Below, piece after piece: positions 1 through 39,935 of a DNA stretch of 64,000 bases; the stretch's first letter is position 1, and every line of letters begins with the position of its first letter. The position numbers and the translations under genes were made by a program. The stretch is taken from contig OZ242010.1 in NCBI GenBank assembly GCA_965204745.1, forward strand, positions 4,256,001 through 4,320,000, given 5' to 3'. The stretch is from Candidatus Latescibacterota bacterium (GTDB lineage Bacteria > Latescibacterota > UBA2968). Under the pieces are notes generated by a model that worked only from the letters and a program-made list of their open reading frames with translations, was not told where the DNA came from and did no database searches.

Positions 1-1369
<1,369 letters not shown>

Positions 1370-24171: not shown

Positions 24172-24957
24172 TCAAAGATTTTGATCGAGCCAGTCCAACA
24201 CATCTGCCCACGCGCTGCCCTGTGCGAGCAAATCGAGGCCGTGCCCCGTGCCCTGATAGCCGATCACAGCGGTGACGCCTTGGGTCAAGCCCGACATGGT
24301 TTGGGACGAGGTATAGGCATAGCCATCGCCAAAAGCCGCCAAAAAGAGAATGTTGCGCGGCGCGAACCCGGGTATGTTCGTCCCGATGAGCACTTCGCGC
24401 GCCTGATTCTCGCGGAAGGAGGGCGACACCGAGACCGTCGCTTTGATATCCGACACCAAGCCCGCGCTCACAAACGCGATGTCCGCGCCGATGTCCGTGC
24501 CCACGACGCCGATGCGGTTGGGGTCTGCCTCCGGGCGGGTTTTGAGAAATGCAACCGCAGCCTCGACATCTAACGGCATCTGGTTGAAGTCCTCGACGGA
24601 AAAGTTTTCGATAGTGAACGCTTGGCCGTTGCGAAAGATGCTGTTGCCATGCCCGCGCAGGTCAAACGCAAGGGCCACGTAGCCCCGCTCCACGACGAGT
24701 TCCGGCACAAAGCCCGCCCATTGACCGTGATTTTCATTAAACGGGTGGATCAAGATCACCGCAGGGCGCGGCCCGGTCAGGTGCGAAGCGGAAAACAGCG
24801 TGCCAAACAACGAGAATCCATCCGCGGTTTGAAACTGCACGGGTTGCAACCGCACAGAACGCACCACGGCGTCAGGCGACATTGTGGGCATCGTCATCTC
24901 CGTACCGCCACATCCCCCCAAAACTGCAACGAGCACAATCCATAACCCGAGGCGCAT
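24172..24957 (-). CDS. Alpha/beta hydrolase-fold lipoprotein
   Basis: Lipobox LGGC; VILIHP, FDLRGHGNS, RIGVVGTDIGA, GTGHG; start ATG 24957. Confidence 0.85.
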   Translation of the reverse strand: MRLGLWIVLVAVLGGCGGTEMTMPTMSPDAVVRSVRLQPVQFQTADGFSLFGTLFSASHLTGPRPAVILIHPFNENHGQWAGFVPELVVERGYVALAFDLRGHGNSIFRNGQAFTIENFSVEDFNQMPLDVEAAVAFLKTRPEADPNRIGVVGTDIGADIAFVSAGLVSDIKATVSVSPSFRENQAREVLIGTNIPGFAPRNILFLAAFGDGYAYTSSQTMSGLTQGVTAVIGYQGTGHGLDLLAQGSAWADVLDWLDQNL

Positions 24958-25068
24958 GACCAATGTCCTTTTGCTTTCGACTGCGTTTGTGTGTATGTTT
25001 CCCTCGATATATGGCAACATAATGCAATCTAACCGAAATAGCAAGCGGGGACGCCTGCGGAGGAGATT

Positions 25069-25325: not shown

Positions 25326-26090
25326 TTACAGCAGGCGTTCGCGGTCGAGCATGCGGCGGAGGGCGAGGAAGATGCACAAGGCCCCCAACGCGACAATGCC
25401 CACGCGATTGAGGATGACGCGGTTCGTCCACAGGTTGGGATCGAGATTGGAGGGGGGTTCAAAGGGTTTGAGAAAGAGGTCGTAGGCCGAGTTGGTCAAC
25501 GTATTGCCACCTATTTCTACTTCCGATTCCGGCGAGGTCAAAAGCAAAATCGCGATCAAAATGCCCACGGCGATCATGCCCGCTGCATTGCTGCTGCGGC
25601 ACAGGACCGAAAAGAGGAATGTGAGGCCCACCATGAAAAACGCGGGGAACCAGGCATTGAGCCCGCCCCAAATGAAGGGGAACTCGGCAAAGAAAAAATA
25701 GGCGATGGCACTCATCGCCATCAGGGTGGCGAACAACACGGCGCAGATCGTCACGATCCGCACGGACCAGGTGGCGTAGTGGCTGATCGCGGTGCTGAAC
25801 AGAATTTCGAGGGTGTTCTTATCGCGCTCGCCCGCGACCATGTCCATCGTCAAATAGATCGCGAGCACCGTGCCCGGCACTTCGACCAAGACATTGAGGG
25901 CTTGCTCCACGGAAAATCCCTCGCCCGGGTACCAGAGCGCGAACGCGTACAAAATCGCGTAGTAGCTCAAAACGCCACCGCACATAAAAATCACTTTGCG
26001 GTGAAGCGCGATTTGCATGCTCAAGGCGTGCAATTTGCCGACCGAGAAAAGCAACTCACGCCAGGTCAGGTTGTTTGTGTCGGTTGCCAT
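25326..26090 (-). CDS. ABC-2-type permease
   Basis: About six TM segments; ERDKNTLEILFSTAI motif; start ATG 26090 overlaps the end of the RND-ABC fusion. Confidence 0.82.
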   Translation of the reverse strand: MATDTNNLTWRELLFSVGKLHALSMQIALHRKVIFMCGGVLSYYAILYAFALWYPGEGFSVEQALNVLVEVPGTVLAIYLTMDMVAGERDKNTLEILFSTAISHYATWSVRIVTICAVLFATLMAMSAIAYFFFAEFPFIWGGLNAWFPAFFMVGLTFLFSVLCRSSNAAGMIAVGILIAILLLTSPESEVEIGGNTLTNSAYDLFLKPFEPPSNLDPNLWTNRVILNRVGIVALGALCIFLALRRMLDRERLL

Positions 26091-29000
26091 GTCGCAAGAG
26101 GTAGAGGTACGCGTCTTCGAGATTGGGTTCGACCGCCCGCGCTTCGGGAAGCGGAGATGCGGCGAGAAAGCGCGCGCGAATCCCGCCCGGCACGCGCACA
26201 TGGGCAATCAGGTCCAAGTCGCGCTCTAGGGCGTCAAACCGCGATTCGCTCAACAGGGCTTCCCACACCCTGTCGCGGGCGAGTTCGCGCATCGCTAGCG
26301 GCGTGCCCGCGTAGAGGACTTTGCCTCGGTCGAGCACGGCCAAGCGGTTGCAACTGCCGGAAATATCTTCCACGATGTGCGTGGAAAAAATGATGATCTT
26401 CTCTTGGCTAAATCGCGCCAGCAAGTTTCTGAAGCGGATGCGTTCCAGTGGATCCAGGCCCGCTGTCGGCTCGTCCACCACGATCACCTGCGGCAGGTGC
26501 AACAGGGTTTGGGCGATGCCTACGCGCTGTTTCATGCCGCCGGAGAACGCGCCGATAGGGTCGTCTCGCCTGTCCCACAGGTTCACCTGTTCCAAGCACG
26601 CTTGGACGCGCTTGCGCCGTGCTACGGTGTCTTTGAAGCCCTGCAACAGGGCGCGGTATTCCAGATAATCGCCCGCGGACATGTGCGAGTACAGGCCGAA
26701 GTGCTGCGGCAAGTACCCGATCACGCCTCGCATGTTTTGGTGGTTGAGCGGGGTCTTGCCATTGACGAGCACGGAGCCGTAACTCGCGGACAACACCCGG
26801 CACGCGATCCGCATCAAGGTGGTCTTGCCCGCGCCATTGGGGCCCAAAAGCCCGAACATCCCGCGCGGAATATCCAAGCTCACGCCGCCGAGGGCGCAAA
26901 ACTGCGGCCGGGGAACCCCGATGATGGGCACGGCGGCTGCGCCGCGATACGCGATGCCCTTGAGAAAGCCCAATCGCCCCGGCATATTTTCCGGGTTGAC
27001 GCGCCCAGACGCGACTCGGTTTGCCAAGAACGCGGTCAGGTGGTAGAGGAGATAGACCGCCGCGCAGGCAATGGTCAATGACAGCAGGTTCAACCGCCAG
27101 TGGATAAAAGCCACAAAGGACAGCGGCAGGATTGCGCGGGCGAGTTTCAACAGAAATCGGTTTTTGAGCTGAACCCCGCACGTCGTTGCGAAACCGCGCG
27201 CGAGGTGATGGATGAGGCCGCACAGGCCGAGGGCGGTCAGAAAGATCCACATCCCCGCTTCAAAATAAGTCTCCAAATAGACGAGCAGGGCGAGCAAGGG
27301 CAATTTCCACCACAGGCTGTCCCGCTGATCGACGATCAACCGCGCGCCGCGTTGTTCGCGCCGCTTAAACCGATCCCATTCGCGCCTGAACTGCCCGGGC
27401 GCGCCGTAAATTTTCGTGAGGTTGCGGATTTGGAGATATTCCACGTCGCCAATTTGATCGCGGGCCGCGATGCGCGCGCGGTGAACGCGCTGTACCAGCC
27501 ACGCGCCGGTCATGCAGATGATCCACGCGGGCAGGGCCAAGAGGCAGGTCCAGAACAAACTCTGGTAATAATCGTCGACGAAATAGGTCGCCCCCGCGGC
27601 GACTGCGCTGCCCAAAGCAACGCCGACCCAGCCGATGTCTGCCAACCACGCCTTGACTTGGTCGATGCCCATATAGACCACGGGGATGAAAATCAGGGTG
27701 GAGACCATCGAAACCCCCATGCCGCCGAGCACGGTAATGGCGAACGGGGGCCAAATTTCGTAATCCCCGCCGAACTTGAGGGCCAGGGGCAACACGCCCA
27801 AAATGGTGGTGGCCGAGGTCATCAAGATGGGGCGCACGCGGGAGCGGGACGCGGCCAGCACAGCGCGTTCTCGCCTGAACCCGTGCCGGAAGCGCGAGGT
27901 GCTTATCGCGTCTATGAGCACGATGCCATTGTTGACGGCGATGCCGAGCAACACGATGAAGCCGAGGATTGCCATCGGCGCTTCTTGAGACGCGAGGCCC
28001 GTGCCGGACAAGATCAGCGCCCAGCAAGAGCCGATGATCGCCGTGGGCAAGGTGCAAAGGATGATGAGGGGCGCGGAGAGCGATTCGAACAGCGAGGCGA
28101 GGATCATGAAAATCAACAGCGCGGCAATGCCGATCATCCAGTAGTAGATCGTCTCTTCTTCGGCCTCGACGATTTCGATGGCGTAGCCGGTGGGCAACAC
28201 CATTTCGGCGACCACGTCTTGCACGTACGCCCGCGCCGCGTCCAACAGGGGTTGAGACGCCAAAATTTCGTCTGCAAACCGGTAGGACACGATCACGCGC
28301 CGAGATTGGTCGGTCCGCAAAATCATGCTGCGACCTTGGTCCCGACGCACATGCGAGACTTCGGACAGGGGCAAGTGCGTGCCGCCCGCGCCGAGGATCG
28401 GGGTTTGGCGCAAGCCCTCGATGCCGTCGCCCTCTTCTTCCGGATCTTCCACATTGCGAATTTCAATGGGGATTTCCGCGCCGTCCGGGGCGAGAAAGGA
28501 CACAGTGGCGCGCGCGCCGCGCGGGTTGGCGTCGCCCACGGCATTGAGCACGGTTCGCACTTGCAGGCGGCGGTCGAACATGATGGCCTCGTCCGGCAAG
28601 ACGTGGACTTCGGGCGCGCCGCGTTCCGCGTCGGGCTGGATGCTGTTGGGATCGATTTCCTCCACTTCTTCGAGGCGGAAGGCCAGGTCCTCGGCGATCA
28701 TCTGCAGCACGGTGAAATCGTACCCGCGAATCACAGCGGTTTCCGCGGGCGCGCCGCCTTCCAAATTGAACCCGCCGGAGGAGCGCGCGCGACTGCTGCC
28801 GCGAATGCCGCCGCCACCCCCGCCGCGGCCCCCGCCTCGGCCCGTGCGGGCAATCGGCTCGTAGCTCACTATGGCGTTTTCCGCGCCGCCAAACGCGTCG
28901 GTGTCCTCGAGCGTTTCCTTGATGAGATCGACCGAGATGCCGCCGCGGTCCGCCAGGGGCAAGAGCTCGACATTGATGGTGGCCTGCGTTTCCCGGATGC

Positions 29001-30765
29001 TGGTGACAAAGCGTTCGATGCCCTCGGCTTCGCGCACCGCGCTTTCCACCTCGCCGACCGCTGCGTCCAATGCCTCTAAGGTCGTGCCTTCGGGCATGCC
29101 GATGTAAATGGCGAACCGGTTTTGCTCTCGGCGGACGTCGCGTTGCAGCATGAAGATCAACGAGATGATGAGGGTGATGATGAGCGCGCCGGCGATGCCG
29201 AGGGAAACGCCGATGCGGTGGCGCAAGCCGGTTTTGAGGCAGATCGTGTACATCTCGATGAGCCTGCCGGTTTCGGTTGGCGGCCGAGATGCCAGGGACA
29301 GGGTTTTGGACGCAAGGGCCGGCACCAAGGTCAGGGCGACCAAGAGCGAGGCGAGCAGGGGGAAGGTCATGGACAAGGCGAGTTCGCGCAGCAGGTCTTG
29401 ATAATCGCTTTGGATGAAGACCACGGGCAAAAAGACCGTGACGGTTGTCGCGGTGGCCGCGAGCACGGCGCGGGCGACTTCGTCCGTGCCCAAGCGCGCG
29501 GCTTCGTTCGGGGATTTGCCCTGTTCGTAGTGCTTGAAGATGTTCTCCATGACCACGATGCCATTGTCGGTCAACATGCCCACGGCCAGGGCCAAGCCGC
29601 ACAGGGAGAGCACGTTCAGGCTGAGGTCCCACAGGTACATCAAGTTGAACGTGAGCAACAAGGAACAAGGGATGGCGAGGATGAGCACTGCGACAAAGCG
29701 CAGGTTTCGCAAGAACAAGAACAAAACAAAAAGCCCGAGCACGCCCCCCGCGCCCGCGGCTTGTTTGAGGGTGCTGAGGGCTCCGTCCATGATCTCGGCT
29801 TGGCTTTGCGCGATAGCGAGTTGGATGTTTTCCGGGGCGAGGTCCGCATTGACGCGGGCAATCGTGGTTGCGAGTTCTTCTGCGACTGCGATCAGGTTGG
29901 CCTCGTCGTCTTTTTGAATGCGGATGCCCACCGCGGGCTTGCCGTTGATGCGCTGGATGTCGGCGCGTTCCTGAAGGCCGTAGCGAATTTGCGCGATGTC
30001 GCCGAGGTGCAAGGGCAGTTCCGGTTTGATGACGAGTTGGCGGATTTGTACGAGGTCCGTGAATTGCCCGCGGATGCTGACCGCGTACACGCGTTCCCCG
30101 TCGTGAACCTCGCCGAGGTATTGCCTGCGCGTGTTGAACGCCTCGATGCGGTTGCGGACGTCTGACATGGAGAGTTGGTGCGCTTGCAACAGGGCGGGAT
30201 CCGCGATGATTTCGATGGCGGCGCGTTGTCCGCCGAGCACTTGTGCGTTGACCACGCCGTCGACCGCTTCGAGTTCCGGGCGGATTTTCTCTTCGGCAAA
30301 TTCGCGCAGCCAATTTATGTCGCCATCTGCCAAGACGTGAATTTGCATCACAGCGGCCGAGAGGTCGGACGAGTCAAAGCGCTGTACGTCGAGGCGCGTG
30401 CGCTCGGGCAACATCGGTTGGAGGCGCGTCAGCCGGCTTTCGAGTTGTAGCAACGCAAATTTCATGTCCGTATCCGGCGCGTACGCCACGCGCACGCCCC
30501 CGTTGTTTTCGCGGGAAAAGGATTCGAACGCCTCGATGCCCTCGAGTTTGCCGATTTCCTCTTCGATGGGCATGACCAATTCGCGCTCGACCTGTTCGGG
30601 CGAATAGCCCTGTTGCCTGGCCGTGACATAGACTTGGGGCGACACGTATTCCGGAAAAATCTGCACCGGCAATCGGTAGAGGGAGATCGCGCCCATGATG
30701 CCCAATGCCAAAAAAAACATGGCCGTGGTCACGGGCCTTCGCACGGCAAATCCCGCAAGGGTCAT
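26056..30765 (-). CDS. AcrB-family RND permease fused to extra TM helices and a C-terminal ABC ATPase
   Basis: RND motifs GMLTDNGIVVMENI, GIAVNNGIVLID, RVRPILMT; then GPNGAGKT, YLPQHFG, FSGGMKQR, VIVVDEPTAGLDP and STH in one 1569-aa frame. Confidence 0.93.
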   Translation of the reverse strand: MTLAGFAVRRPVTTAMFFLALGIMGAISLYRLPVQIFPEYVSPQVYVTARQQGYSPEQVERELVMPIEEEIGKLEGIEAFESFSRENNGGVRVAYAPDTDMKFALLQLESRLTRLQPMLPERTRLDVQRFDSSDLSAAVMQIHVLADGDINWLREFAEEKIRPELEAVDGVVNAQVLGGQRAAIEIIADPALLQAHQLSMSDVRNRIEAFNTRRQYLGEVHDGERVYAVSIRGQFTDLVQIRQLVIKPELPLHLGDIAQIRYGLQERADIQRINGKPAVGIRIQKDDEANLIAVAEELATTIARVNADLAPENIQLAIAQSQAEIMDGALSTLKQAAGAGGVLGLFVLFLFLRNLRFVAVLILAIPCSLLLTFNLMYLWDLSLNVLSLCGLALAVGMLTDNGIVVMENIFKHYEQGKSPNEAARLGTDEVARAVLAATATTVTVFLPVVFIQSDYQDLLRELALSMTFPLLASLLVALTLVPALASKTLSLASRPPTETGRLIEMYTICLKTGLRHRIGVSLGIAGALIITLIISLIFMLQRDVRREQNRFAIYIGMPEGTTLEALDAAVGEVESAVREAEGIERFVTSIRETQATINVELLPLADRGGISVDLIKETLEDTDAFGGAENAIVSYEPIARTGRGGGRGGGGGGIRGSSRARSSGGFNLEGGAPAETAVIRGYDFTVLQMIAEDLAFRLEEVEEIDPNSIQPDAERGAPEVHVLPDEAIMFDRRLQVRTVLNAVGDANPRGARATVSFLAPDGAEIPIEIRNVEDPEEEGDGIEGLRQTPILGAGGTHLPLSEVSHVRRDQGRSMILRTDQSRRVIVSYRFADEILASQPLLDAARAYVQDVVAEMVLPTGYAIEIVEAEEETIYYWMIGIAALLIFMILASLFESLSAPLIILCTLPTAIIGSCWALILSGTGLASQEAPMAILGFIVLLGIAVNNGIVLIDAISTSRFRHGFRRERAVLAASRSRVRPILMTSATTILGVLPLALKFGGDYEIWPPFAITVLGGMGVSMVSTLIFIPVVYMGIDQVKAWLADIGWVGVALGSAVAAGATYFVDDYYQSLFWTCLLALPAWIICMTGAWLVQRVHRARIAARDQIGDVEYLQIRNLTKIYGAPGQFRREWDRFKRREQRGARLIVDQRDSLWWKLPLLALLVYLETYFEAGMWIFLTALGLCGLIHHLARGFATTCGVQLKNRFLLKLARAILPLSFVAFIHWRLNLLSLTIACAAVYLLYHLTAFLANRVASGRVNPENMPGRLGFLKGIAYRGAAAVPIIGVPRPQFCALGGVSLDIPRGMFGLLGPNGAGKTTLMRIACRVLSASYGSVLVNGKTPLNHQNMRGVIGYLPQHFGLYSHMSAGDYLEYRALLQGFKDTVARRKRVQACLEQVNLWDRRDDPIGAFSGGMKQRVGIAQTLLHLPQVIVVDEPTAGLDPLERIRFRNLLARFSQEKIIIFSTHIVEDISGSCNRLAVLDRGKVLYAGTPLAMRELARDRVWEALLSESRFDALERDLDLIAHVRVPGGIRARFLAASPLPEARAVEPNLEDAYLYLLRHGNRHKQPDLA

Positions 30766-33700
30766 GGCGATTTCCCCCTGAGCCGGTCGATCATTTCGTA
30801 CATGGTGGGAATGATGAGCAGGGTCATCAAGGTGGAGGTGACCAAGCCGCCGATGACGGCGATGGCCATGGGCGCGCGCAATTTCGCGCCTTCGCCAAAG
30901 CCGAGGGCCATCGGCAACAGGGCGAGGATGGTGGTCGCGCTCGTCATCACGATGGGCCGAAGGCGATCCTGCCCGCCCTGCAACACGGCTTCCCGCAGGC
31001 CTAGGCCCTCGCGCCGGAGTTGGTTGATGCGATCCACGAGCACGATGGCGTCATTGACCGCGATGCCGCCGAGCATGATGATGCCGATGTAGGCCATCAC
31101 GCTGAGGGGTTCGCCCAAAAAATAGAAGGCGAAGACCACGCCCACGCCGGCCAAGGGCACGGAAAACATGACCGTGAACGGGTGGAGCACGGATTCAAAC
31201 AGGGAGGCCATGACCATGTACACGAGCGCGATAGAGAGGATCAGCGCGAATTTGAGGCTCGCAAAGGATTCCCTGCGCTCGCGCTCTTCCCCGCCGATGG
31301 CGATGCGATAGCCAGAGGGGATGGCCATGGTTTGGATCGCTGCGCGGATTTCTCCGATAGCCTCGCTCAACACGCGGCCCTCGGTCAAGTAGCCGGTGAC
31401 GCGGCCCACGCGCCGTTGGTTTTCCCGTAAAATTTCGCGCGGGCCTTCGATGATATTGAGGTCCGCGATATCGCCCAAGGTCAAGACCGCGCCCTCGGCG
31501 CCATCGATTCGGATGGTTTGCAGGGCGTTGAGGTCGATGTCGCGGTATTTGACGCGAATGTCGCGCGCGCGCTGGTCCTTGGACAATTCGCCTGCGACTT
31601 CGCCGGACAACTGCCGTTCCAAGGTGCGGCTGATGGTTTGCGTGGTCAGGCCAAAGGCGGACGCGACTTCGTCTCGGATAGCGAGATCGACTTCGGGTTG
31701 CCCGCCCTGAAAGCTGGTTCGCACATTGTACACCGCGGGCAGGGATTCCAGGCGCGCTTGGAGTTCTTTTGTGATGCGCGCCAAAATGTCGAGGTTTTCC
31801 CCAGACACCTCCACTTGAATGGGCGCGTCTCGTCCGGCCATGACGCCTTCGAGCGCGGTTTCGTGCAATTTGTACTTGACTTCGATATCGGGCAACGCGC
31901 TCAGTACGGGATCGAGATCGCGCACCAGTTCGCTCACATTGCGCGAGCGGTCCGAATGCAGCGCCACAGAGAGGGTTGCGCGGTTGGGGCCAGAGGGATC
32001 ATCCGCGCCGGAGATGCGCGCCGGGTCGAGGCCCACGCGTGCGTACACGTGCGAGATGTCGCGCCCGCCAATGGCTTCCACGATCTCTTTGGCGCGCAAG
32101 GCGAATCGGTCGCTCAGTTCCACGCGCGATCCCTCGGGCAAGGTGAGGTCGATTTGAAACAGCCCTTGGTCCTCGCGGGGGATAAATTCGGTTTGCACCG
32201 CGCGGGCGATGTACCCGGTCGCGCCGATCACCAGCGCGGCGACGCCGATCAGCGCGAGTTTGTGGTTCAACACGCCGTTGAGGAATCGGTAGTAAGCGCC
32301 CGAGCGCAGGGAGGTGTGACGCGCGGTTTTGATGCGGCGAAAAACGCGCGACGTCAGCATGGGGATGGTCGTCATGGCGACGACCAGGGATGACAGCAGG
32401 GAAAACGCGACGGTCCACGCCTGATCTTTGAAGAGTTCGCCGGCCAAGCCCTGCAAATAGACGATGGGCAAAAACACGGCCACGGTCGTCAGGGTGGAGG
32501 CCAAAATCGCCACGCCGACTTCGGTCGCGCCTCGGCTCGACGCGGTGCGTGCATCTTCCCCGGTTTCGAGGTGGCGATAGATGTTTTCGATGACCACGAT
32601 TGCATTGTCCACCAGCATGCCCGCGCCCAATGCCAAGCCGCCCAGGGTCATGATGTTCAGGGTCAGCCCCTCGAAGTACATGAGGGTAAAGGTCGCCAGC
32701 ACGGATATGGGAATCGCCAGGCCGATGACCAGGGTGACGGTCCAACTCCGCAGGGCGATCAGCAACACCAGAATCGCCAAGATCGCGCCGTGGATGGCCG
32801 AGGTTTCGACTTCGCCCACCGCTTCTTCCACGAATCGGGCTTGGTTTTCGACTGTGGTAAAGCGCAACCCGCCCAAGTCCGCCCGCATGTCGTCAATCGC
32901 GTCCAACACTTCGCGCACGACAGCGACCGTATTGCTGCCGGCCTCTTTGTAAATGGCGAGGCCCACGCACTCGCGGCCATCGAGGCGGGCGATGGTTTCG
33001 CGCTCTCGGTACACCAAATCGACCGTGCCCACATCGCGCACGCGCACCGGCACGCGGTCGCCGGACACCGCGCCGCCCGTGCCGCGCTTTTCGCCCACGA
33101 TGACCTCGCGCACGTCGTCGATGTCGTCCAAGCGGCCCAGGGCTTTGACCAGGTACGACTGCTGATTTTCTCGAAGCGTCCCCCCGGACACGTCTGCATT
33201 GGCTTGTCCGATGCGGTTGACGATGGCGTCGGGCGTGAGCCCAAAGGCTTCGAGCAAGTAGGGGTTGAGCAAAACGCGGACTTCTTTTTCCGCGCCGCCT
33301 TCCACTTCGGCAGAGGCCACGCCTTCGAGGGCTTCCAATTTGGGTTTGATCAGCAGATCGACCGTGCCCACGAGCGCGTCGAGTTCCGCGCCCTCTTCTG
33401 CGGTGATCGCGATTCGCATAACCGCGCGGGCGAGCGGGTCTTCGCGGTTCACGTTCACTTGCGACACGTCCTCATTTTGCGCGTATCGGCCCACCCTTTT
33501 TTGAATGTCGAGCAAGCCGAAATCCATGTCCGCATCCCACGCAAATTCCGCGACGACCACGCCTTGGCCCGAGCGCGTTATCGAATACACGCGCTTGACG
33601 CCCTGAATGGTGCTCACGTCTCGCTCGAGTCTGCGCGTGTAGCGTTCCTCGATTTCACGGGGGGATTTGCCCGGCGCGCTCAGGTCGATGGTGACCACGG

Positions 33701-33827
33701 GCGTTTGCAGATCCGGGAGCAGGTCCGTGCCCAGGCCATTGAGGGAAATCCAGCCGAGCAAGACCACTGCGAGCGTGCCCATGGCGATGGTGACCGGATA
33801 GCGCGTTGAAAATTCCGGCAGGTTCAT
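30762..33827 (-). CDS. AcrB-family RND permease
   Basis: GMLVDNAIVVIENI, GIAVNDAIVLVD, RLRPIVMT; 1021 aa. Confidence 0.95.
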   Translation of the reverse strand: MNLPEFSTRYPVTIAMGTLAVVLLGWISLNGLGTDLLPDLQTPVVTIDLSAPGKSPREIEERYTRRLERDVSTIQGVKRVYSITRSGQGVVVAEFAWDADMDFGLLDIQKRVGRYAQNEDVSQVNVNREDPLARAVMRIAITAEEGAELDALVGTVDLLIKPKLEALEGVASAEVEGGAEKEVRVLLNPYLLEAFGLTPDAIVNRIGQANADVSGGTLRENQQSYLVKALGRLDDIDDVREVIVGEKRGTGGAVSGDRVPVRVRDVGTVDLVYRERETIARLDGRECVGLAIYKEAGSNTVAVVREVLDAIDDMRADLGGLRFTTVENQARFVEEAVGEVETSAIHGAILAILVLLIALRSWTVTLVIGLAIPISVLATFTLMYFEGLTLNIMTLGGLALGAGMLVDNAIVVIENIYRHLETGEDARTASSRGATEVGVAILASTLTTVAVFLPIVYLQGLAGELFKDQAWTVAFSLLSSLVVAMTTIPMLTSRVFRRIKTARHTSLRSGAYYRFLNGVLNHKLALIGVAALVIGATGYIARAVQTEFIPREDQGLFQIDLTLPEGSRVELSDRFALRAKEIVEAIGGRDISHVYARVGLDPARISGADDPSGPNRATLSVALHSDRSRNVSELVRDLDPVLSALPDIEVKYKLHETALEGVMAGRDAPIQVEVSGENLDILARITKELQARLESLPAVYNVRTSFQGGQPEVDLAIRDEVASAFGLTTQTISRTLERQLSGEVAGELSKDQRARDIRVKYRDIDLNALQTIRIDGAEGAVLTLGDIADLNIIEGPREILRENQRRVGRVTGYLTEGRVLSEAIGEIRAAIQTMAIPSGYRIAIGGEERERRESFASLKFALILSIALVYMVMASLFESVLHPFTVMFSVPLAGVGVVFAFYFLGEPLSVMAYIGIIMLGGIAVNDAIVLVDRINQLRREGLGLREAVLQGGQDRLRPIVMTSATTILALLPMALGFGEGAKLRAPMAIAVIGGLVTSTLMTLLIIPTMYEMIDRLRGKSP

Positions 33828-34879
33828 GGCGCGTCTCCAACGACCCGCACGCGGGTTCGCGGTCTGAGGGTTTCGTAATTGCTCGATATCAACTGCTCGC
33901 CCGGTGCGAGGCCGACGATGATTTCCACGCGGCGCCGGTCTTCGAGGCCGGTTTCGACTGCGCGCTGTTGGGCGCGGCCCTCTTCTTCCACAAAGACGAC
34001 CTTTTGGTTGCGCCTACGCAAGATGAGTTGGCGCGGGATGAGCACGACGTTTTGGCGCGATTCCACGATGATGTCCGTTTTGACGAACATGCCCGCGCGC
34101 AACAGCAAGTCCGGGTTGTTCACCAGGCCCACGACTTTGACCGTGCGCGTGGCCGGATCCAGCGCGGGATCCATTTCCACGATCTCGCCCTCAAATACCG
34201 CATCCGGCAAGGCGTAGTTGCTCACGCGGATGCGCTGGCCCAATTTCACGGAGATGATCTGCGCGTTTGGGATTTTCAGATCGACGAACACCTGCGAGTA
34301 ATCCATGATTTTTGCGATGGGGGTGTTGGGCGTGACCAACGTGCCCTGCGTGATGTCCGCGCGTTCAGACAACATCCCACCAATGGGCGCGACGATGCGG
34401 GTTTTGTCGATTTTGATGAGGGCGTCTCGGTAGTTGGCATCGGCTTCGGCCCAGGCTTTGCGCGCATTTTCAACGGCCATTGTCGTGGACAGTTGCCGGC
34501 TGAACAGGGTTTCTTGTTCGTCCAAGGTGCGCTTGGCGGTTTCAACCGCGAGTTTTCGCGCTTGCACGCGCGCGCCGACGACCCATTCGTCGCTGTCGAG
34601 TTTGGCGACGACTCGCCCTTTTTTGACTTCAGAGCCTTTGGCGAGCAAGCGGTTGTTCCCATCCTCGCTCCAGTACAGGTGGCCCCGAATTTCCGTGGAG
34701 ATATAGGCTTCGCGCACGGGGCGCAAGGTGCCCGTGGCGGTGACGATAGCCTCGATGGTTCCGGTTTCCACGGATTGCACGGTGACCGGCATTGCGAGAT
34801 CGACCGTGCGCTGTTCCGGTTGGGTGTTGCAAGCGGTGAGCCAGCATAGCGCGATGATCAGTGGGATGTGGAACTTCAC
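33824..34879 (-). CDS. RND periplasmic adaptor (MFP), probable lipoprotein
   Basis: GTG start behind GGAGG; lipobox LTAC; IVAPIGG, DPATRT, LRAGMF. Confidence 0.92.
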   Translation of the reverse strand: MKFHIPLIIALCWLTACNTQPEQRTVDLAMPVTVQSVETGTIEAIVTATGTLRPVREAYISTEIRGHLYWSEDGNNRLLAKGSEVKKGRVVAKLDSDEWVVGARVQARKLAVETAKRTLDEQETLFSRQLSTTMAVENARKAWAEADANYRDALIKIDKTRIVAPIGGMLSERADITQGTLVTPNTPIAKIMDYSQVFVDLKIPNAQIISVKLGQRIRVSNYALPDAVFEGEIVEMDPALDPATRTVKVVGLVNNPDLLLRAGMFVKTDIIVESRQNVVLIPRQLILRRRNQKVVFVEEEGRAQQRAVETGLEDRRRVEIIVGLAPGEQLISSNYETLRPRTRVRVVGDAP

Positions 34880-34906
34880 GGGTGTCCTCCGAGTTGTCAG
34901 TTGTCA

Positions 34907-35290
34907 GGTTGTATTGACATTTCATTTTTTTTGACGTTACGCACAGATTAGCAAATGTGTTGCTTGCTCATTTAAGGAGGACCTATCCCCCGGCCCCTTT
35001 CCTACGAGGAAAGGGGAGTAAAGGCCCTTTGATGGCTTCTCGCTATGGTTGCTCTGATGGCGTTGACCGAGGGCAGAAAGCGATTAAGGAGGACCTATCC
35101 CCCGGCCCCTTTCCTACGAGGAAAGGGGAGTAAAGGCCCTTTGATGGCTTCTCGCTATGGTTGCTCTGATGGCGTTGACCGAGGGCAGAAAGCGATTAAA
35201 AATTCCTCACATCTTCCCCTCGGAAAACCGATCCTCGTTCCCCCTTCCTCGCAGGAAGGGGGTTAGGGGGTAGGTCCCGATCTCGATAAG
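34907..35290. mobile_element. Third MITE copy, with an internal tandem duplication of ~110 bp
   Basis: GGTTGTATTGACATTT end next to (GTTGTCA)x2; the unit GGACCTATCCCCCGGCCCCTTTCCTACGAGGAAAGGGG...GCGATTAA occurs twice. Confidence 0.78.
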
Positions 35291-35304
35291 CCGTCCCATT
35301 CCGT

Positions 35305-38300
35305 TTAAAACCCAAATTGTCCGCCGGGGCCGCGTCTGCCAGGGCCGCCGGGACCTCGTCTTCCGCCGTCGCCACGGCCGCCATCCGGGCCGCCGCGCCC
35401 GCGGCCGAACATGAATGTGGGCAGGTCGTCGTCATACGCGTCGGGATTTTGTGGATCGAAGAAACGCCAGCGCACGGCATCGGCATACAGGCCCCGCTCG
35501 GCGCGGTCAGAGAGTTCGACCGCGGCCTCTTCGCCCTCGGCAAATGCGTATCGCCCCAAGTGATTCCATCCGGCTTTCATCTGGTCGCGTTCCATTTCGA
35601 GGGTGTCGGCCTTGCCCCCGTGGAAAACCGTGAGGGTAAAGCGTTCGCCGATGCGCGCGCGCCTCGCCATAGAGGGATCGAGAAAGTAAAAGCCCACGTC
35701 GAACAGCCCGGCTTTGGGAATGCGCGCGGTCCACACGGCCGGTTGCGCGCCATCGCCCCCGCGCTTTCGCCGATAATTCGTTTCAAATCGCCCGAACGCC
35801 ATGGGCATGACGTGCTCGCGCCAGTTGTCGCCTTTTAGGCCCGGGCGAAAATAGCGCGTCTCGCGGCGGATGGGCATGGAAAACCCGTCGTCGTCATTAT
35901 CGACGATGATCTCGAGCGGCCCCGACTCGTCGCCGGTCACGTCTTTGATGTACGTGGTCGGAAAGCCCTCGGTGACCTTTTCGGGCACGCGCACGGGCGA
36001 GACCAAGGGCCGCCGGTTGCGCGCGAAGAAGGGTTCGACCATCACGCGAAAGGGCTGATCCCAAAGCACCATCGACACTTCGATTTCCCGGCCGCCTTCG
36101 ATCTCCACGCCCTTGACGGCCTCATCGCCCCGGCCCGAAGCGGTAATTTGCACATAGCCCCGGCCCGGTTCGCTGTTTTTGATGCGGACGATCAGTTGAT
36201 AGACCACCATGCCAAAGCCGTCGTCCATCTTCATGGCTTTGACCCGCGTGAGGGTATAGCCCGGGATTTCCGTGCCGAAGATCCAATCGTCGACCAACCG
36301 CTGCATTTTGCGGCTGTTTTCGCTGGCGGTGGTATCGCCGATAGCCGCACGTTCAAAGGTGGAGAAGTCGATGGCGTCGTATTTGTGATTTTGGTCGATG
36401 TCGTCCAAGATACTGCGAAATGTTTCCTCGCCCCAAAAGGCTTCCATCATCTGAAAGAGCGCGGGGCCTTTGGCGTCGAGCACTTGGCGGTACAGGCCGG
36501 CCTGTTTTTCGGGATCCAACTCGGCAAATGACTTGTGTTGCATCTTGGCGACCAGCGTGTCCCAGCGCGCGCTCGATCCCCGATTGCGACCTCGGGGGCC
36601 ACCGCGCCCTCGGTCCCCAAACCCGCCGCGCCGCCGGGCGTAAAACGCAGCCGTCATGTCCGTGCTCAAATCGTCTTGGATGTACATGGGCATGCCCTTT
36701 TTGAGCAGGGCGTAGTGGTCGCCCACAAATTGCTTGTCGTAGGCCCAAAGCTGAATCACCGGGCTGCGGAACAGGCCGCCGGTGGTTCTGCCGCTTTCCT
36801 CTTTGGAGAAGAAGGTGGCGAAGACCGCGCGCACCAACAGGTCTTTTTTGATGTCTTTGGGTTCTCGGTTGCCGCGCGAGGCTTTTTGGTACCGCGCAAA
36901 ACTTCGGGTGAATTGCTGTTGCATGAGCACGTCTTCTTCGACCATCAACACGCCCGGCAGGGTCAGACCGCCCTTTTCCTCCCAGCCCTCGTAGTACCAC
37001 TGAATGTGGAATGGGATTTCCACGAGGGAGAGGCTCGGATAGGGATAGGCCATGCCGGATTCCTGTTCCATCGCATCCATGATTTGCCCGAGGGCGCGCG
37101 TGATTTCCCCTTGGGCGTCTTCAAAAAATTTGACGGGCCGCAAGTGCGAGGGGTGGACGTAAAGGGCACAGGCGATGTCGTGAATGGTGGCGCGATACAC
37201 CCGATAGACGCCTGCGTTGAGCGAGAGCACGGGTACGGGTTTTTCAATGACCCAGTGCCGCGTGACCTGCGTATCGAGGGTATCGGCGTCACCGGCCTGG
37301 CCTTGGGTGATGACTTCGAGGCCGCGCGGGTACGCGATCTGCAAGTTCGCCGTGGAGAACGAGACCGGGCGTGCGTTTTCGTACCCGTAATCCACGCCTG
37401 CGACCGGGTACCAACGGCTGCGCGGGGGCAGGAAGACGGATTCATCGCGGATCCACGCGGTCAGAGTGCCTTTGTTGAACACGTTTCTGCGCTTGGGCAA
37501 TTTGGGTCTGGCTTTTTCTCGGCGGAGATCGAAGCCATCCGTGTCGATGTCCCCTGCGTACTTCAGGGTTAGGGCGAGTTCTCGTTCCGACTGCAAGGGC
37601 GCGTGCGGTATGACGCGGATCGCGCTACCGATGCGTTCCCAAGGGATGGCCCGCCCGTCGCCATGGGTGAGGCTTTGGAGTTCAAACCCGGGATTGAGGG
37701 ACAAGATGAGGGTGTCGAGCGGGGTTTCGTGTGGATTTTTCAGGGTGATCGTGCCCGATGCTGCGAGCGGGTCTTTGTGCAAGAGCGTCACCTCGAGGTC
37801 GTAATGCGCGATTTCCGCGACTGGCAGATGGGCGACCGCTTCTTGTTGCGCGCGCAGGGATTGGCGATAGGCTCGCGCGTCTCGCGCTTGGGCATCCATA
37901 AAAAAGTAAAGCCCGGCGGCCAAGCCAAAGCCGGCCAAGGCGCAACCGCGGCCAAACCACCGTGCGGTCAAAGAGTGGGCGAGCCGGGGATAGCGATCAA
38001 TTGAAAAGCCGAAAAGGCCAATGCCGAGCAGGACGTAGAACAGGCGTTGCAACCCCACCTGCGATAGGTCCGCCAAGCCGATTAAGTCCGAGTAATACAG
38101 GGGGGCGTAAAACGCGCCGAAATCGTAGATGCCGCCGTATCGACTGCCCAAGAATGCGATCACGACCAACAAGTACCCGATGACGATGAGGGCCACCGCT
38201 GCTTGCCGGCGCAACAACGCGCCCAAGAAGAAGGTCAAAGACGACATGAAGATCAGGGCGGGCAGGTTCATCAGCACGAGGTAGCCGATATAGGGTTCGA

Positions 38301-38730
38301 TGTTGAACGGATTGCCGGTCATGCTGATCTTCGCCGCTTGGATGCCCAAGGTCAAGAGCAACACGCCGAGGCTCAACAAAACGAGCGCGCTGACGACGCC
38401 AAAATATTTCCCGGCGACGAGTTCCGCTGTTGAGATGGGACGGCCCGCGACCACTTCGTAGATGTGCGCCTGTTCGTCCGCGGCCCGGAAATCGCCCACG
38501 ATGAACGCGATGACGATGGTTTGCAAAAAGCTGTACAGGTAAAACGGGACGTAGGCTTCGATGCCGATGGGCATTTCGCGGCCACTGGCTTCGACGAGCG
38601 CGAAGACAATGCCGAGCAAGACCGGAATGCTCACGCCAATGCTGCCCAAGATGCGAAATTTTGTGGTTCTCAAAAGCATTTTGCGCTCATAACGCGCAAC
38701 GCCGAGGATGTTTTGGAGGATGGAGAGCAT
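35305..38730 (-). CDS. ABC-2 permease fused to an M1-aminopeptidase-like domain and a golvesin/xanthan-lyase-like C-terminal domain
   Basis: TM N-terminus (VARYERKMLLRT, RPISTAELVAGK); HYDLEVTL..LSLNPG, RWYP, YPYPSLSLVEIP; C-terminal IIVDNDD..GWNHLGRY..YADAVRW; no HEXXH seen; start ATG 38730. Confidence 0.8.
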   Translation of the reverse strand: MLSILQNILGVARYERKMLLRTTKFRILGSIGVSIPVLLGIVFALVEASGREMPIGIEAYVPFYLYSFLQTIVIAFIVGDFRAADEQAHIYEVVAGRPISTAELVAGKYFGVVSALVLLSLGVLLLTLGIQAAKISMTGNPFNIEPYIGYLVLMNLPALIFMSSLTFFLGALLRRQAAVALIVIGYLLVVIAFLGSRYGGIYDFGAFYAPLYYSDLIGLADLSQVGLQRLFYVLLGIGLFGFSIDRYPRLAHSLTARWFGRGCALAGFGLAAGLYFFMDAQARDARAYRQSLRAQQEAVAHLPVAEIAHYDLEVTLLHKDPLAASGTITLKNPHETPLDTLILSLNPGFELQSLTHGDGRAIPWERIGSAIRVIPHAPLQSERELALTLKYAGDIDTDGFDLRREKARPKLPKRRNVFNKGTLTAWIRDESVFLPPRSRWYPVAGVDYGYENARPVSFSTANLQIAYPRGLEVITQGQAGDADTLDTQVTRHWVIEKPVPVLSLNAGVYRVYRATIHDIACALYVHPSHLRPVKFFEDAQGEITRALGQIMDAMEQESGMAYPYPSLSLVEIPFHIQWYYEGWEEKGGLTLPGVLMVEEDVLMQQQFTRSFARYQKASRGNREPKDIKKDLLVRAVFATFFSKEESGRTTGGLFRSPVIQLWAYDKQFVGDHYALLKKGMPMYIQDDLSTDMTAAFYARRRGGFGDRGRGGPRGRNRGSSARWDTLVAKMQHKSFAELDPEKQAGLYRQVLDAKGPALFQMMEAFWGEETFRSILDDIDQNHKYDAIDFSTFERAAIGDTTASENSRKMQRLVDDWIFGTEIPGYTLTRVKAMKMDDGFGMVVYQLIVRIKNSEPGRGYVQITASGRGDEAVKGVEIEGGREIEVSMVLWDQPFRVMVEPFFARNRRPLVSPVRVPEKVTEGFPTTYIKDVTGDESGPLEIIVDNDDDGFSMPIRRETRYFRPGLKGDNWREHVMPMAFGRFETNYRRKRGGDGAQPAVWTARIPKAGLFDVGFYFLDPSMARRARIGERFTLTVFHGGKADTLEMERDQMKAGWNHLGRYAFAEGEEAAVELSDRAERGLYADAVRWRFFDPQNPDAYDDDLPTFMFGRGRGGPDGGRGDGGRRGPGGPGRRGPGGQFGF

Positions 38731-39007
38731 GGCGTGTTCCTCAATAGAAGCGGTTAAACGCTGATAGCTACTTTTGTGATTAGACCTAACATTTACAAAT
38801 GGAGTTCCCAAAGTGAAAGAATTAGACCAACTGTCGTCCTCGCGCCACAACACACGCACTTGGGCAAATGGATTGTGGCGGCGAAAATGGGAAATCATAA
38901 CCCTATATTTTTTAATGGCATCTGCTCAATTTTGTCTTGCGTCTCGTGGGTTTCGGGCTATATTAGCGTCAATGCTATGACGAGACCATGCGAGATGGGA
39001 GTGCTGC

Positions 39008-39316
39008 ATGACGACGACCAAAAGGGCCATTGCCTTGGAAATTTCCGAGCGTTTGGGAATCAAAAAACAACTGGCCTACGATATGGTGAATACACTTTTT
39101 GACATTATGCGCGAGAACCTGATCGATGGCAACCGAATCGAGATTCGAGGCTTTGGCGTGTTGGGGGTCAAGCCGACCAAACCCAAGCCCGCTGCCCGCA
39201 ACCCCCGCACGGGCGAGATCGTGTACGTGCCCGCCCGGCGGAAGAGCTATTTCAAAGCGGGCGTTCTGATCAAGAAGGAGTTGTACAAGCCATTGGAGGA
39301 AATCGAGAAAAGCTAA
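39008..39316 (+). CDS. HU/IHF-family DNA-binding protein
   Basis: IEIRGFGV, ARNPRTGE, FKAG. Confidence 0.95.
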   Translation: MTTTKRAIALEISERLGIKKQLAYDMVNTLFDIMRENLIDGNRIEIRGFGVLGVKPTKPKPAARNPRTGEIVYVPARRKSYFKAGVLIKKELYKPLEEIEKS

Positions 39317-39373
39317 GCGGTATAGCCACAAGAGGTACGAGTGGGGTACAACTGGCGACAGCCCGTTCACAGG

Positions 39374-39414
39374 AAAACAAAAAGGTCCAGCCAAAAGCTG
39401 GACCTTTTTGTTTT
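39374..39414 (+). terminator. Bidirectional rho-independent terminator
   Basis: Perfect 18-bp stem AAAACAAAAAGGTCCAGC / GCTGGACCTTTTTGTTTT. Confidence 0.85.
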
Positions 39415-39488
39415 GTCAGGACCTCTTCCCGATTACTCGCTACGATCCGTTGTAGGCGCCGCCTGTGCCTATTTTGAAAAAAAGATAC

Positions 39489-39897: not shown

Positions 39898-39935
39898 TTT
39901 TCACTGACAATGCGAATTTTGAGCACATCTGCTTG

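Follow-up and report, generated by a model that had tools for sequence, protein, structure and literature searches.

A conserved bacterial gene cluster encodes an RND permease fused to an ABC ATPase

Organization of the gene cluster

The window analysed here is a stretch of 64,000 nucleotides from a Candidatus Latescibacterota bacterium (assembly GCA_965204745.1, contig OZ242010.1, positions 4,256,001 to 4,320,000). ORF analysis places in it a cluster of five genes, here called A, B, C, D and E, all co-oriented on the minus strand (Table 1). The original prediction had described such a set with the last four genes overlapping, and this was borne out, with overlaps of 4 nt between B and C, 4 nt between C and D, and 35 nt between D and E. 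The spacing between A and B is 425 nt and holds two tandem copies of a 112-nt repeat, which has 84 matches across the genome and is a genome-wide intergenic element, not a part of the machine. Homologues of A span just 92-93% of its long ORF, so the likely true start is M57 at 38730, and the N-termini of homologues point to the ATG at 26090 as the likely true start of E. A start of A at 38730 agrees with the end coordinate of the original prediction.

Table 1. Coordinates of the genes, protein regions and repeat of the cluster in the window.
Feature	Coordinates	Strand	Description and basis
Gene A	ORF 35305-38898; likely 35305..38730	-	1,141 aa from M57; ABC-2/NosY-like membrane domain, M1-aminopeptidase-fold putative pseudoenzyme, beta-sandwich and Golvesin_C domains, Gly/Arg-rich tail
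A, residues 1-300	37831..38730	-	Membrane domain, about seven helices; hydropathy, AF2 helices, weak ABC2_membrane_3/5 matches
A, residues 306-818	36277..37815	-	M1 aminopeptidase fold without zinc motif; Foldseek, HExxH absent
A, residues 825-1090	35461..36258	-	Beta-sandwich and Golvesin_C; Pfam PF25275 E 2.7e-13, AF2 strands
112-nt dispersed repeat	34972..35199		Two tandem copies in the A-B spacer; TRF: period 112, 2.0 copies, 100% match
Gene B	33824..34879	-	RND-type periplasmic adaptor (membrane fusion protein), 351 aa
Gene C (RND1)	30762..33827	-	Complete RND permease, 1,021 aa
Gene D	26056..30765	-	RND2, six extra TM helices and ABC ATPase; 1,569 aa, one frame
D, residues 1-1044	27634..30765	-	RND permease body; ACR_tran in two stretches, MdtB 9lyq_B E 1.9e-70
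D, residues ~640-675	28741-28848	-	Gly/Arg-rich insert in the second periplasmic loop; present in 15/15 displayed homologues
D, residues 1046-1091	27493..27630	-	TM13 and TM14 hairpin; AF2 helices 42-63, 66-98 (model numbering), hydropathy, charge counts
D, residues 1110-1120	27406..27438	-	ATPase strand 1, LQIRNLTKIYG; conserved block I.I.NLTKIYG.PGRF.REW
D, residues 1147-1252	27010..27327	-	Four membrane helices TM15-18 between ATPase strands 1 and 2; AF2 helices 143-163, 167-192, 199-221, 224-248 (model numbering)
D, residues 1290-1569	26059..26898	-	Rest of ABC ATPase and C-terminal beta domain; ABC_tran 1294-1435
Gene E	ORF 25326-26207; likely 25326..26090	-	Small six-helix ABC-2-like permease, 254 aa from likely start

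The fusion protein D and its conservation

The D protein combines two Pfam domains, ACR_tran, matched in two stretches with 593 bits, and ABC_tran, matched with 93.5 bits (cut-off 25). The link between them is short and conserved, and consists of TM12, the TM13-TM14 hairpin, which is predicted to bring the chain back to the cytoplasm, about 18 residues, and then ATPase strand 1, in which L1116, K1118 and Y1120 are found in 110/110 homologues. The original prediction of an ATPase appended to an AcrB-like protein stands as far as the fusion is concerned, but the ATPase is no simple appendage, as four membrane helices are inserted after strand 1. Strand 1 does not directly precede strand 2 (near residue 1290), and about 170 residues that include these helices lie between the two; the TM15-18 insert is found in all phyla, though it is variable. 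Despite this insert, the ATPase appears in the structural model to fold normally, with strand 1 in its usual place, model residues 103-106 aligning to residues 1-2 of solved NBDs. The model matches TM_1403 (4yer_B) with a Z of 26.7 and an rmsd of 3.3 over 262 aligned residues (model 103..556 against chain 1..305, VIA-align), 220 of the 230 residues of LptB (4p31_B) are aligned from its residue 2 onward, Foldseek retrieves NosF, ABCA7 and LptB, and the MacB NBD is also among the structural matches (5lj6, Z 24.1).

The loops of D contain 25 Lys and Arg residues on the predicted cytoplasmic side versus 1 on the periplasmic side, and the charges around TM15-18 are consistent with an in-out-in-out-in path, so that the topology check proposed with the original prediction places the ATPase, as predicted, in the cytoplasm. 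The domain carries Walker A (GPNGAGKT), Q-loop, signature (FSGGMKQR), Walker B and D-loop (VVDEPTAGLD) and H-loop (STH), which confirms the motifs listed earlier, and K1314, Q1354, S1408-G-G-M, D1431, E1432 and H1463 are invariant in 110/110 homologues.

The single reading frame claimed for the fusion held up wherever it could be followed: D is open in one frame in all 72 related loci with enough upstream sequence, and both PF00873 and PF00005 occur on each of the 120 database matches listed, 109 of which are 1,480-1,700 aa long. The junction is also crossed by contigs from two studies. In run X1, which may be the source sample, one contig of 9,625 nt spans 25900-30900 unbroken with 21 substitutions and 0 gaps, and in run X2, from a separate study, another spans 25900-28055, likewise with 0 gaps; none of the four runs checked has a listed insertion or deletion. 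The gene is present in 84/168 genomes of the phylum and 20/20 of the genus, the fusion is kept across at least five phyla, and the order of the five genes is conserved among related loci. Its occurrence in Bacteroidota, mentioned in the original prediction, was also confirmed, with Mangrovibacterium and Gaoshiqia as examples. Of 1.84 billion representatives, only 130 were found to contain the linker/insert module, and in 23/23 of those of at least 1,480 aa an RND body precedes it. The idea that the fusion is an assembly artefact, a frameshift artefact or a pseudogene, in favour of which nothing was found, is refuted by these locus, contig and genome counts and has a negligible chance of being correct; the fusion is real and conserved. 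A full-text literature search found no description of this gene cluster.

The RND pump and the ABC permeases

Both C and D belong to the full-length HAE-1-like RND family (PF00873). ACR_tran covers residues 5-1013 of C with 775 bits, and neither C (615 bits) nor D (495 bits) reaches the NF033617 RND_permease_2 cut-off of 1,250 bits. As predicted, both retain the TM4 motif, GMLVDN in C and GMLTDN in D, together with R.RPI.MT. The proton-relay residues of TM4 (Asp) and TM11 (Arg and Thr) are conserved in both families: D400, R978 and T983 of D are invariant in 110/110 homologues, down to about 40% identity, and D407, R957 and T962 of C, as well as N925 in TM10, are found in 64/64 homologues, with D926 in 55/64. 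In the alignment to MdtB, the equivalents of AcrB D408 and K940, the second TM4 Asp and the TM10 Lys, are Asn in both proteins, so the proton path is unlike that of pumps studied to date and is presumed to work. The DN (TM4) and NN (TM10) pattern of D also occurs in an ordinary unfused RND permease at 7187-10219, in a canonical OMF-MFP-RND operon of the same window, and hence does not mark a loss. On these residues, both engines, RND and ATPase, look functional.

The adaptor B scores 187 bits with TIGR01730 (RND_mfp, cut-off 94.9) and also matches HlyD_D23, as expected for a tripartite RND system, and lies upstream in 62/64 loci, while C lies upstream in 66/68. No TolC-like gene lies within 25326-38898; the nearest one, at 11262-12665, is in a separate OMF-MFP-RND operon, and six OEP genes are present elsewhere in this genome. 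The original statement that the operon lacks TolC is correct here but is not a general rule, since 20/80 related loci carry a TolC-like gene within the cluster, at three different positions. Judged from its gene content, the RND side appears to be a true tripartite pump, and two RND paralogues with a single adaptor fit the heteromeric pump proposed earlier. This arrangement resembles MdtABC-TolC, which also has two adjacent RND paralogues with one adaptor gene, and an outer-membrane factor may likewise come from the cluster or from elsewhere. Among solved structures, MdtB (9lyq) ranks first as a relative of both C (9lyq_B, E 1.4e-98) and D. Nevertheless, C and D share only about 32% identity and both are distant from MdtB by HMMER, MdtB has DD in TM4 and KN in TM10 where C and D have DN and NN or ND, and D bears six extra helices and an ABC ATPase.

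The E protein has six hydrophobic segments by hydropathy, and scores just under the gathering cut-offs of PF12679 (ABC2_membrane_2, 27.0 vs 27.2 bits) and PF12698 (ABC2_membrane_3, 26.8 vs 31.6 bits). Its gene directly follows D on the same strand in 71/71 loci, and D and E are present without adjacent A, B or C at three loci (L058, L065 and L076); a fourth, L067, also lacks the three neighbours, and its contig stops before the position of E. A complex prediction for D residues 1034-1569 with E gave 0.57 against 0.00 for the best control and was graded as weak support, the mark being reached by 116 of 157 solved complexes and by 2 of 215 mismatches, with scores of 0.60 or less in 18 of the 157 solved complexes and in both passing mismatches. 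The runs share at least 85% of contacts and the partner pLDDT is at least 71, although the pass may reflect likeness, because solved NBD-permease complexes exist and self-made alignments were used. The ATPase of D very probably serves an ABC-2-type permease, with E as the probable partner, which upholds for E the original suggestion that it serves two such permeases.

The other candidate permease is A, whose approximately seven helices would leave its C-terminal domains outside the cytoplasm. Homologues of A are 1,080-1,250 aa long, some are labelled as a multi-copper enzyme maturation permease subunit by JGI, and the AF2 model has a pLDDT of 78.6 and a pTM of 0.74. The ectodomain shares the multi-domain M1 fold with IRAP, ERAP1 and PepN (Foldseek E values of 1e-18 to 1e-15 over about 650-680 columns), and its alignment to IRAP (4p8q_A) has an E value of 1.9e-18 over 673 columns at 11% identity. 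In contrast to these aminopeptidases, the ectodomain is below the Pfam Peptidase_M1 threshold (E 0.012, 15.7 bits against 27.7), is joined in one chain to a membrane domain and to Golvesin_C, and lacks the HExxH zinc motif, which occurs in 0/106 homologues. The earlier description as M1-like is thus right for the fold and wrong for the peptidase zinc site, and the ectodomain appears from its sequence to be a catalytically dead pseudoenzyme. A is adjacent in 58/62 loci and its family is about as rare as that of D (125 proteins at E <= 0.001), which suggests that A belongs to the system. Comparison by hhalign finds the membrane domain of A only faintly similar to E (probability 14.8%, E 0.0018), which leaves an E/A heterodimer as a guess, and at one locus (L063) a separate ABC ATPase gene lies beside A, which may thus use another motor there.

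Proposed arrangement and competing readings

The cluster may be seen as encoding a composite envelope exporter in which two transport modules are tethered together, a reading to which we give about an even chance. Most likely, the ATPase of D powers a tethered ABC-2 transporter, formed by E with A, beside an MdtBC-like RND pump. The first module would be the RND pump, with the paralogues C and D and the adaptor B, and by analogy with MdtBC, reportedly MdtB2C in stoichiometry, C and D may form a heterotrimer; its outer-membrane channel would be encoded elsewhere in this genome and inside the cluster in other lineages. The second would be a type-V (ABC-2, NosFY/GldAF-like) transporter, with the C-terminal domain of D as its ATPase, kept at the membrane through the six extra helices, four of them inserted after strand 1. 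Its membrane subunits would be E and, in clusters that have A, the N-terminal domain of that protein; A would carry the dead M1-fold ectodomain into the periplasm. Two D chains would pair their ATPase domains to give two ATP sites, and ATP hydrolysis would drive E and A, either to extract a substrate from the cytoplasm or the inner leaflet or to work the A ectodomain mechanically, while the RND module, driven by the proton gradient, would expel the substrate, which the original prediction took to be a peptide or polymer, across the outer membrane. The data show the fusion and its conservation, the intact motifs, the predicted topology and the linkage of the genes. The subunit contacts, the 2:1 stoichiometry, the passing of substrate between modules and the joint use of ATP and the proton gradient in one pathway are what we infer, and the fusion and linkage by themselves establish no common substrate of the two modules. 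What counts against the composite exporter is the mismatch between trimeric RND pumps and ABC ATPases that work in pairs, with three ATPase domains on a D homotrimer, and also the occurrence, in some lineages, of D and E with none of C, B and A next to them.

Known systems share parts of this design. The fold of the D ATPase is closest to TM_1403, NosF, ABCA/ABCG and LptB, and, as in NosDFY and GldAFG, the permeases are of the NosY/ABC-2 kind and the presence of a large partner domain in the periplasm suggests that ATP from the cytoplasm powers work outside it. However, the D ATPase is fused to an RND permease and interrupted by an insert of four helices, an apparent M1-fold pseudoenzyme fused to a permease takes the place of a beta-helix protein as periplasmic partner, and the cluster lies in neither an N2O-reductase nor a gliding context. 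Among the NCBIfam ATPase models, D matches GldA best (TIGR03522), but the identification of D as GldA was rejected, its 174.4 bits being under the equivalog cut-off of 402.6. MacAB-TolC likewise unites an ABC motor with an adaptor and a TolC-type channel in a single export system, but MacB has a four-helix FtsX-type membrane domain and docks the adaptor itself, whereas here the adaptor is RND-type (TIGR01730) and is accompanied by RND permeases and ABC-2-like ABC permeases.

The evidence for two intact modules would fit equally well a tether for co-assembly only, in which an ordinary ABC-2 transporter, made up of the D ATPase, E and perhaps A, is co-localised with an ordinary RND pump or kept at a fixed stoichiometry to it, but the two act on different substrates or steps, with no hand-over or mechanical coupling. 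This is also favoured by the lineages in which D and E stand without adjacent C, B or A and by the second ATPase gene at L063, but it has to contend with a fusion kept at every locus followed and in at least five phyla and with the conserved order of five genes, and the exclusivity of the linker/insert module behind RND bodies argues for a functional tie stronger than co-localisation; we regard this reading as rather doubtful. The ATPase could instead act on the RND body itself, by gating, resetting, assembling or directly powering RND2, so that D would be an ATP-assisted RND pump with E and A as accessories. The short conserved covalent link, six extra helices that could pack on the RND membrane domain, and the missing equivalents of AcrB D408 and K940 would suit such a pump, but the same DN/NN pattern in the unfused permease of the window and the invariant TM4 Asp and TM11 Arg speak against it. 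Moreover, the ATPase is of the ABC-2/NosF/LptB kind, which is not known to act without a dedicated permease, a candidate permease is invariably adjacent, and the complex prediction, at the level of weak support, puts E with the C-terminal part of D; direct action on the RND body is thus unlikely. The divergent second periplasmic loop of D, with ACR_tran in two stretches around a Gly/Arg-rich disordered insert, and its lower score than C against RND models (593 vs 775 bits) could indicate that RND2 is a non-transporting scaffold that anchors the ABC module to an RND1-adaptor-channel pump or to the envelope. The invariance of D400, R978 and T983 is difficult to account for unless proton coupling is under selection, and D occurs without C at some loci, which makes a scaffold very improbable. 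D itself joins a complete proton-type RND pump subunit to an ABC motor, in a cluster conserved in several bacterial phyla.

The gene cluster and its conservation

The usual teaching is that RND and ABC pumps are alternative export engines, each energised separately. In the cluster analysed here, one RND and one ABC engine occur in a single polypeptide, the 1,569-aa product of gene D, with the catalytic residues of both retained. D consists of an RND permease (RND2) followed by six additional transmembrane (TM) helices and an ABC ATPase, and it is accompanied by genes for an ABC-2-like permease with an M1-fold ectodomain (A), an RND adaptor (B), a second RND permease (C, RND1) and a small ABC-2-like permease (E). 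The names given in public records are "efflux RND transporter permease subunit", "ATP-binding cassette domain-containing protein" and "hypothetical". The start of A was placed at M57 because its homologues span only 92-93% of the long ORF, and the start of E was chosen in agreement with homologue N-termini. The genes overlap by 4 nt (B/C), 4 nt (C/D) and 35 nt (D/E).

Features of the window and of related loci, with occurrence among the 80 loci where counted
Feature	Coordinates	Strand	Description	Occurrence
Gene A	35305-38898	minus	ORF; likely start M57 (38730)	58/62, adjacent to D
Gene B	33824-34879	minus	RND adaptor; TIGR01730, 187 bits (NCBIfam)	62/64, upstream of D
Gene C	30762-33827	minus	full RND permease; ACR_tran, 775 bits	66/68, upstream of D
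Gene D	26056-30765	minus	RND permease (593 bits); ABC_tran at residues 1294-1435	
Gene E	25326-26207	minus	ABC-2-like permease, just below Pfam thresholds; likely start ATG 26090	71/71, downstream of D, same strand
A-B spacer	34880-35304		425 nt	
Repeat in A-B spacer	34972-35199		two tandem copies of 112-nt element with internal hairpins	
Gly/Arg segment of D	28741-28848		residues ~640-675, second porter loop	
Gly/Arg tail of A	35308-35415			
Hydrolase after E	24172-25044	minus	alpha/beta hydrolase (DLH/Hydrolase_4)	
466-aa ORF	22717-24117	minus	downstream of the hydrolase; no Pfam match at E <= 0.001	
Canonical efflux operon	7187-12665	minus	OMF-MFP-RND	
OEP/TolC-like gene	11262-12665	minus	canonical operon	
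Adaptor gene	10216-11265	minus	canonical operon	
Unfused RND gene	7187-10219	minus	canonical operon	
356-aa protein	40205-41275	plus	LDL-receptor class B (beta-propeller)	
2,624-aa protein	42486-50360	plus	at least 18 CARDB repeats, DUF11, LDL-receptor class B repeats	
Hydrolases after E	L055:12506-14359; L060:13616-14590		alpha/beta hydrolases	
Carboxypeptidase after E	L063:12929-14788		M14 carboxypeptidase	
Beta-lactamase-family protein after E	L080:12543-13922			
AbiEi/AbiEii pair	L076:8903-10466		toxin-antitoxin pair inserted between D and E	
Separate ABC ATPase gene	L063:5367-6263	minus	beside divergent A and a TolC-like gene; C and B not adjacent	

Neighbours were counted by tblastn of the window proteins against 80 loci holding a D-type fusion, with the loci offering enough room as denominator, and the five-gene neighbourhood of the original prediction recurs in most of them (Table). 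In nine loci, most of them Acidobacteriota by record title, A is encoded on the other strand, and a small clade (L058, L065, L067 and L076) has D without adjacent A, B or C. In three of these four loci E still follows D, and the contig of the fourth, L067, ends just past D. Since E is found after D wherever the sequence reaches, even where A, B and C are missing, D and E form the invariable core of the system.

An HMM built from nine TolC-like proteins detected a TolC-like gene inside 20 of the 80 clusters, a query with a single OEP (TolC-like outer-membrane factor) protein being less sensitive (8 loci). Its position varies: after E in six loci, between A and B in nine loci of Bacteroidota, before B in four and beside a divergent A in one. 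The earlier statement that the operon encodes no TolC thus describes this window correctly but does not hold for the family, and the presence of such genes within clusters links the RND side with an ordinary tripartite pump that crosses the outer membrane. Six OEP genes are located elsewhere in this genome.

The hydrolase gene and the 466-aa ORF beyond E were excluded from the conserved unit because tblastn gave no match for either in the 80 loci (E <= 1e-5). Non-orthologous hydrolase or peptidase genes just after E recur in several unrelated lineages (Table). The 112-nt unit of the A-B spacer has 84 matching places in the 5.48-Mb genome, where it frequently forms short tandem arrays, and so resembles a REP/MITE-like dispersed intergenic repeat, which makes the spacer a lineage-specific insertion outside the system. 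An Rfam scan for RNAs upstream of A (38600-40300) returned nothing beyond one miRNA match of chance level (E 0.74), and no RNA data set containing the stretch was listed. The CARDB and beta-propeller proteins encoded on the plus strand, the smaller one ahead of the larger, are probably cell-surface proteins.

Reality, rarity and architecture of the fusion

When the C-terminal third of D was used as a database query and matches were restricted to similar total length, all 120 matches listed carried both PF00873 and PF00005, with identities down to ~40%, and 109 of them were 1,480-1,700 aa long. The linker region specific to this family was sought in 185,579 species genomes by pattern and tblastn; 80 of the 125 confirmed places were retained, and the RND body and the ATPase share one open frame in all 72 loci with enough upstream sequence. 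In public sequencing runs, one contig of run X1, which may be the source sample, spans the whole of 25900-30900 with 21 substitutions and no gap, while a contig of run X2, from a separate study, covers 25900-28055 gap-free; across four runs, no insertions or deletions were listed over 25900-30900. The probability of an assembly artefact, an explanation to which the original prediction was exposed, is consequently negligible. Some aligned contigs contain joints, all with a shorter side of 26 letters or fewer (90% likeness); these were put down to other organisms or repeats. D is present as a single copy in the genome.

The region between the RND body and the main ATPase (TM13-14, the first strand and TM15-18, called the linker/insert) is rare, since an exhaustive profile search of 1.84 billion representative proteins gave only 130 matches. 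In all 23 matches of at least 1,480 aa it lies at ~1022-1316, directly behind the RND body. Short matches were considered as unfused forms and rejected, as one terminus falls within the profile or within RND TM11-12 (P0246, P0334, P0357). The exception among those examined is P0270, a 526-aa protein with a Met start at TM13, which could be a free-standing linker/insert/ATPase form or a truncated gene call.

By record title, the fusion is retained across Latescibacterota, Gemmatimonadota, Acidobacteriota, Bacteroidota and genomes of KSB1/Calditrichota type (titles KSB1 and Calditrichota), the nearest relatives being Latescibacterota with 87% identity in the linker. The module is found in 84 of 168 genomes of the window's phylum (34/52 among high-quality genomes) and in 20 of 20 of its genus. 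Occurrence in Bacteroidota, put forward in the original prediction, is borne out by the cultured carriers Mangrovibacterium marinum DSM 28823, M. lignilyticum, Gaoshiqia sediminis and G. hydrogeniformans.

Beyond the twelfth RND helix, D has two hydrophobic helices (~residues 1046-1091), a strongly basic stretch with the block LQIRNLTKIYGAPGQFRREW, and four further helices (~1147-1252) that vary in length and sequence, and only past these does the remaining ATPase begin, with ...AL.GV.L.I..GMFGLLGPNGAGKTT. The block LQIRNLTKIYGAPGQFRREW, conserved in all phyla, is the first beta-strand of the ABC ATPase with its following turn, and its L1116, K1118 and Y1120 are kept in 110/110 homologues. An AlphaFold2 model of residues 1005-1569 (52 homologues, pLDDT 78.0, pTM 0.54) has the same order of elements, and its best Foldseek matches for the ATPase are TM_1403, NosF, ABCA7, MetN and LptB. 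VIA-align superposes the model on TM_1403 (4yer_B; Z 26.7, rmsd 3.3, 262 aligned) and on LptB (4p31_B; Z 25.4, 220/230 residues aligned), placing model residues 103-106 onto residues 1-2 of the solved ATPases. In the model the detached strand thus takes its normal place, and the four helices are an insertion into the ATPase domain. It is unusual for an ABC domain to be built with four membrane helices behind its first strand. The loops of D contain 25 Lys and Arg residues predicted inside and 1 predicted outside, in keeping with the expected cytoplasmic ATPase; with the two plus four extra helices, D is an 18-helix protein. Three low-confidence, disordered Gly/Arg-rich segments are predicted to be periplasmic, two in A (its tail and residues ~755-785 of the long ORF) and one in D; the D segment is Gly-rich in each of the 15 homologues shown, which represent several phyla.

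The two ABC-2-like permeases

Homologues of A range from 1,080 to 1,250 aa, and Golvesin_C is present in nearly all of them; in A itself, Pfam matches ABC-2 weakly at the N-terminus and places Golvesin_C near the C-terminus. Its model (1,141 aa, 57 sequences, pLDDT 78.6, pTM 0.74) consists of an N-terminal membrane domain of about seven helices, then beta, mixed and helical domains that jointly match M1 aminopeptidases, and finally a beta-sandwich, the Golvesin_C domain and a disordered Gly/Arg-rich tail. The ectodomain aligns with IRAP (4p8q_A; E 1.9e-18, 673 columns, 11% identity) and also matches ERAP1 and PepN, and given the seven helices it should be periplasmic. While the fold resembles that of M1 peptidases, the active site is missing in A, the HExxH zinc motif occurring in none of 106 homologues, which makes it an M1-fold pseudoenzyme. 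E has six hydrophobic segments and only a faint likeness to the membrane domain of A (hhalign probability 14.8%).

A candidate composite exporter

The reading that we favour, and to which we give an even chance, is a composite exporter in which the D ATPase powers an ABC-2 transporter of E and A tethered to an MdtBC-like RND pump. The ATPase domains of D would dimerise, as argued for by their canonical signature and D-loop motifs and by D being the sole ATPase gene of the cluster, and the dimer would drive a type-V ABC transporter formed by E and probably A. On the RND side, C and D would assemble into a trimer like that of MdtBC, together with B and a channel in the outer membrane; in a D2C trimer the number of ATPase domains would be exactly two. 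The ABC part would extract the substrate or work the ectodomain of A, after which the RND part would expel the substrate. Complex prediction for D residues 1034-1569 with E, using custom alignments, scored 0.57 against 0.00 for the best control, graded as weak support; scores up to 0.60 are given by only 18 of 157 solved complexes and by both passing mismatches. The mark itself is passed by 116/157 solved complexes and 2/215 mismatches, the runs had at least 85% contact agreement with partner pLDDT of at least 71, and the pass may be owed to solved ATPase-permease complexes. The peptide-binding fold modelled for A and the recurrent hydrolase or peptidase gene after E hint at a possible peptide-like cargo, as leads only.

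The composite exporter would work like several known systems and is a member of none. It shares two RND permeases and one adaptor with MdtABC-TolC; NosDFY and GldAFG also combine an ABC-2 motor and a partner in the periplasm, the GldA model giving D 174 bits (cut-off 402.6); and in MacAB-TolC an ABC motor likewise belongs to a tripartite pump, whose permease is of another type.

ATP and the proton gradient could act on a single substrate path in one trans-envelope machine, which we regard as a tentative possibility: the two D subunits of a D2C heterotrimer would pair their ATPase domains beneath an E/A permease pair abutting the RND membrane domain, and ATP-driven extraction or flipping, or movement of the A ectodomain, would feed RND entry directly. 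Mere co-assembly of the ABC and RND modules without such coupling is rather unlikely, the conserved fusion and gene order speaking against it. Improbable to a further degree is an ATPase acting on the RND body, to which it is joined in one chain; E, the predicted partner of the ATPase region, accompanies D in every locus with room.

That RND2 might be a passive scaffold bears on the proton relay, the residues of TM4, TM10 and TM11 in the RND membrane domain. The best solved relative of both C and D is MdtB (9lyq_B), and whereas AcrB and MdtB have a second Asp in TM4 and a Lys in TM10, C and D, aligned to MdtB, have Asn at both positions. In the unfused RND of the window's canonical operon, TM4 has DN and TM10 has NN just as in D, so the pattern is not decay of a fused copy. 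In D, D400 (TM4), R978 and T983 (TM11) and the TM10 Asn pair are invariant or nearly so, and in C, D407, N925, R957 and T962 are kept in 64/64 homologues and D926 in 55/64. With the relay so preserved, a scaffold role is very unlikely. The ATP-site motifs of D are all invariant in 110/110 full-length homologues.

No description of an RND-ABC fusion was found in the full-text literature searched, which lay outside subscription journals and TCDB, and a mechanically coupled ABC-RND hybrid would be, to our knowledge, a transporter class without previous description. New in this work are the invariable D-E core, the TolC-like genes of some clusters, the M1-fold pseudoenzyme nature of A, the relay pattern of D shared with an ordinary pump of the same genome, the rare and exclusive linker module, and the contig-checked junction. 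Because cultured carriers exist, the question of coupling is directly testable. If the modules are coupled, this would be the first dual-energy exporter, and it would lend itself naturally to testing how the inner-membrane and trans-envelope steps of transport are linked.
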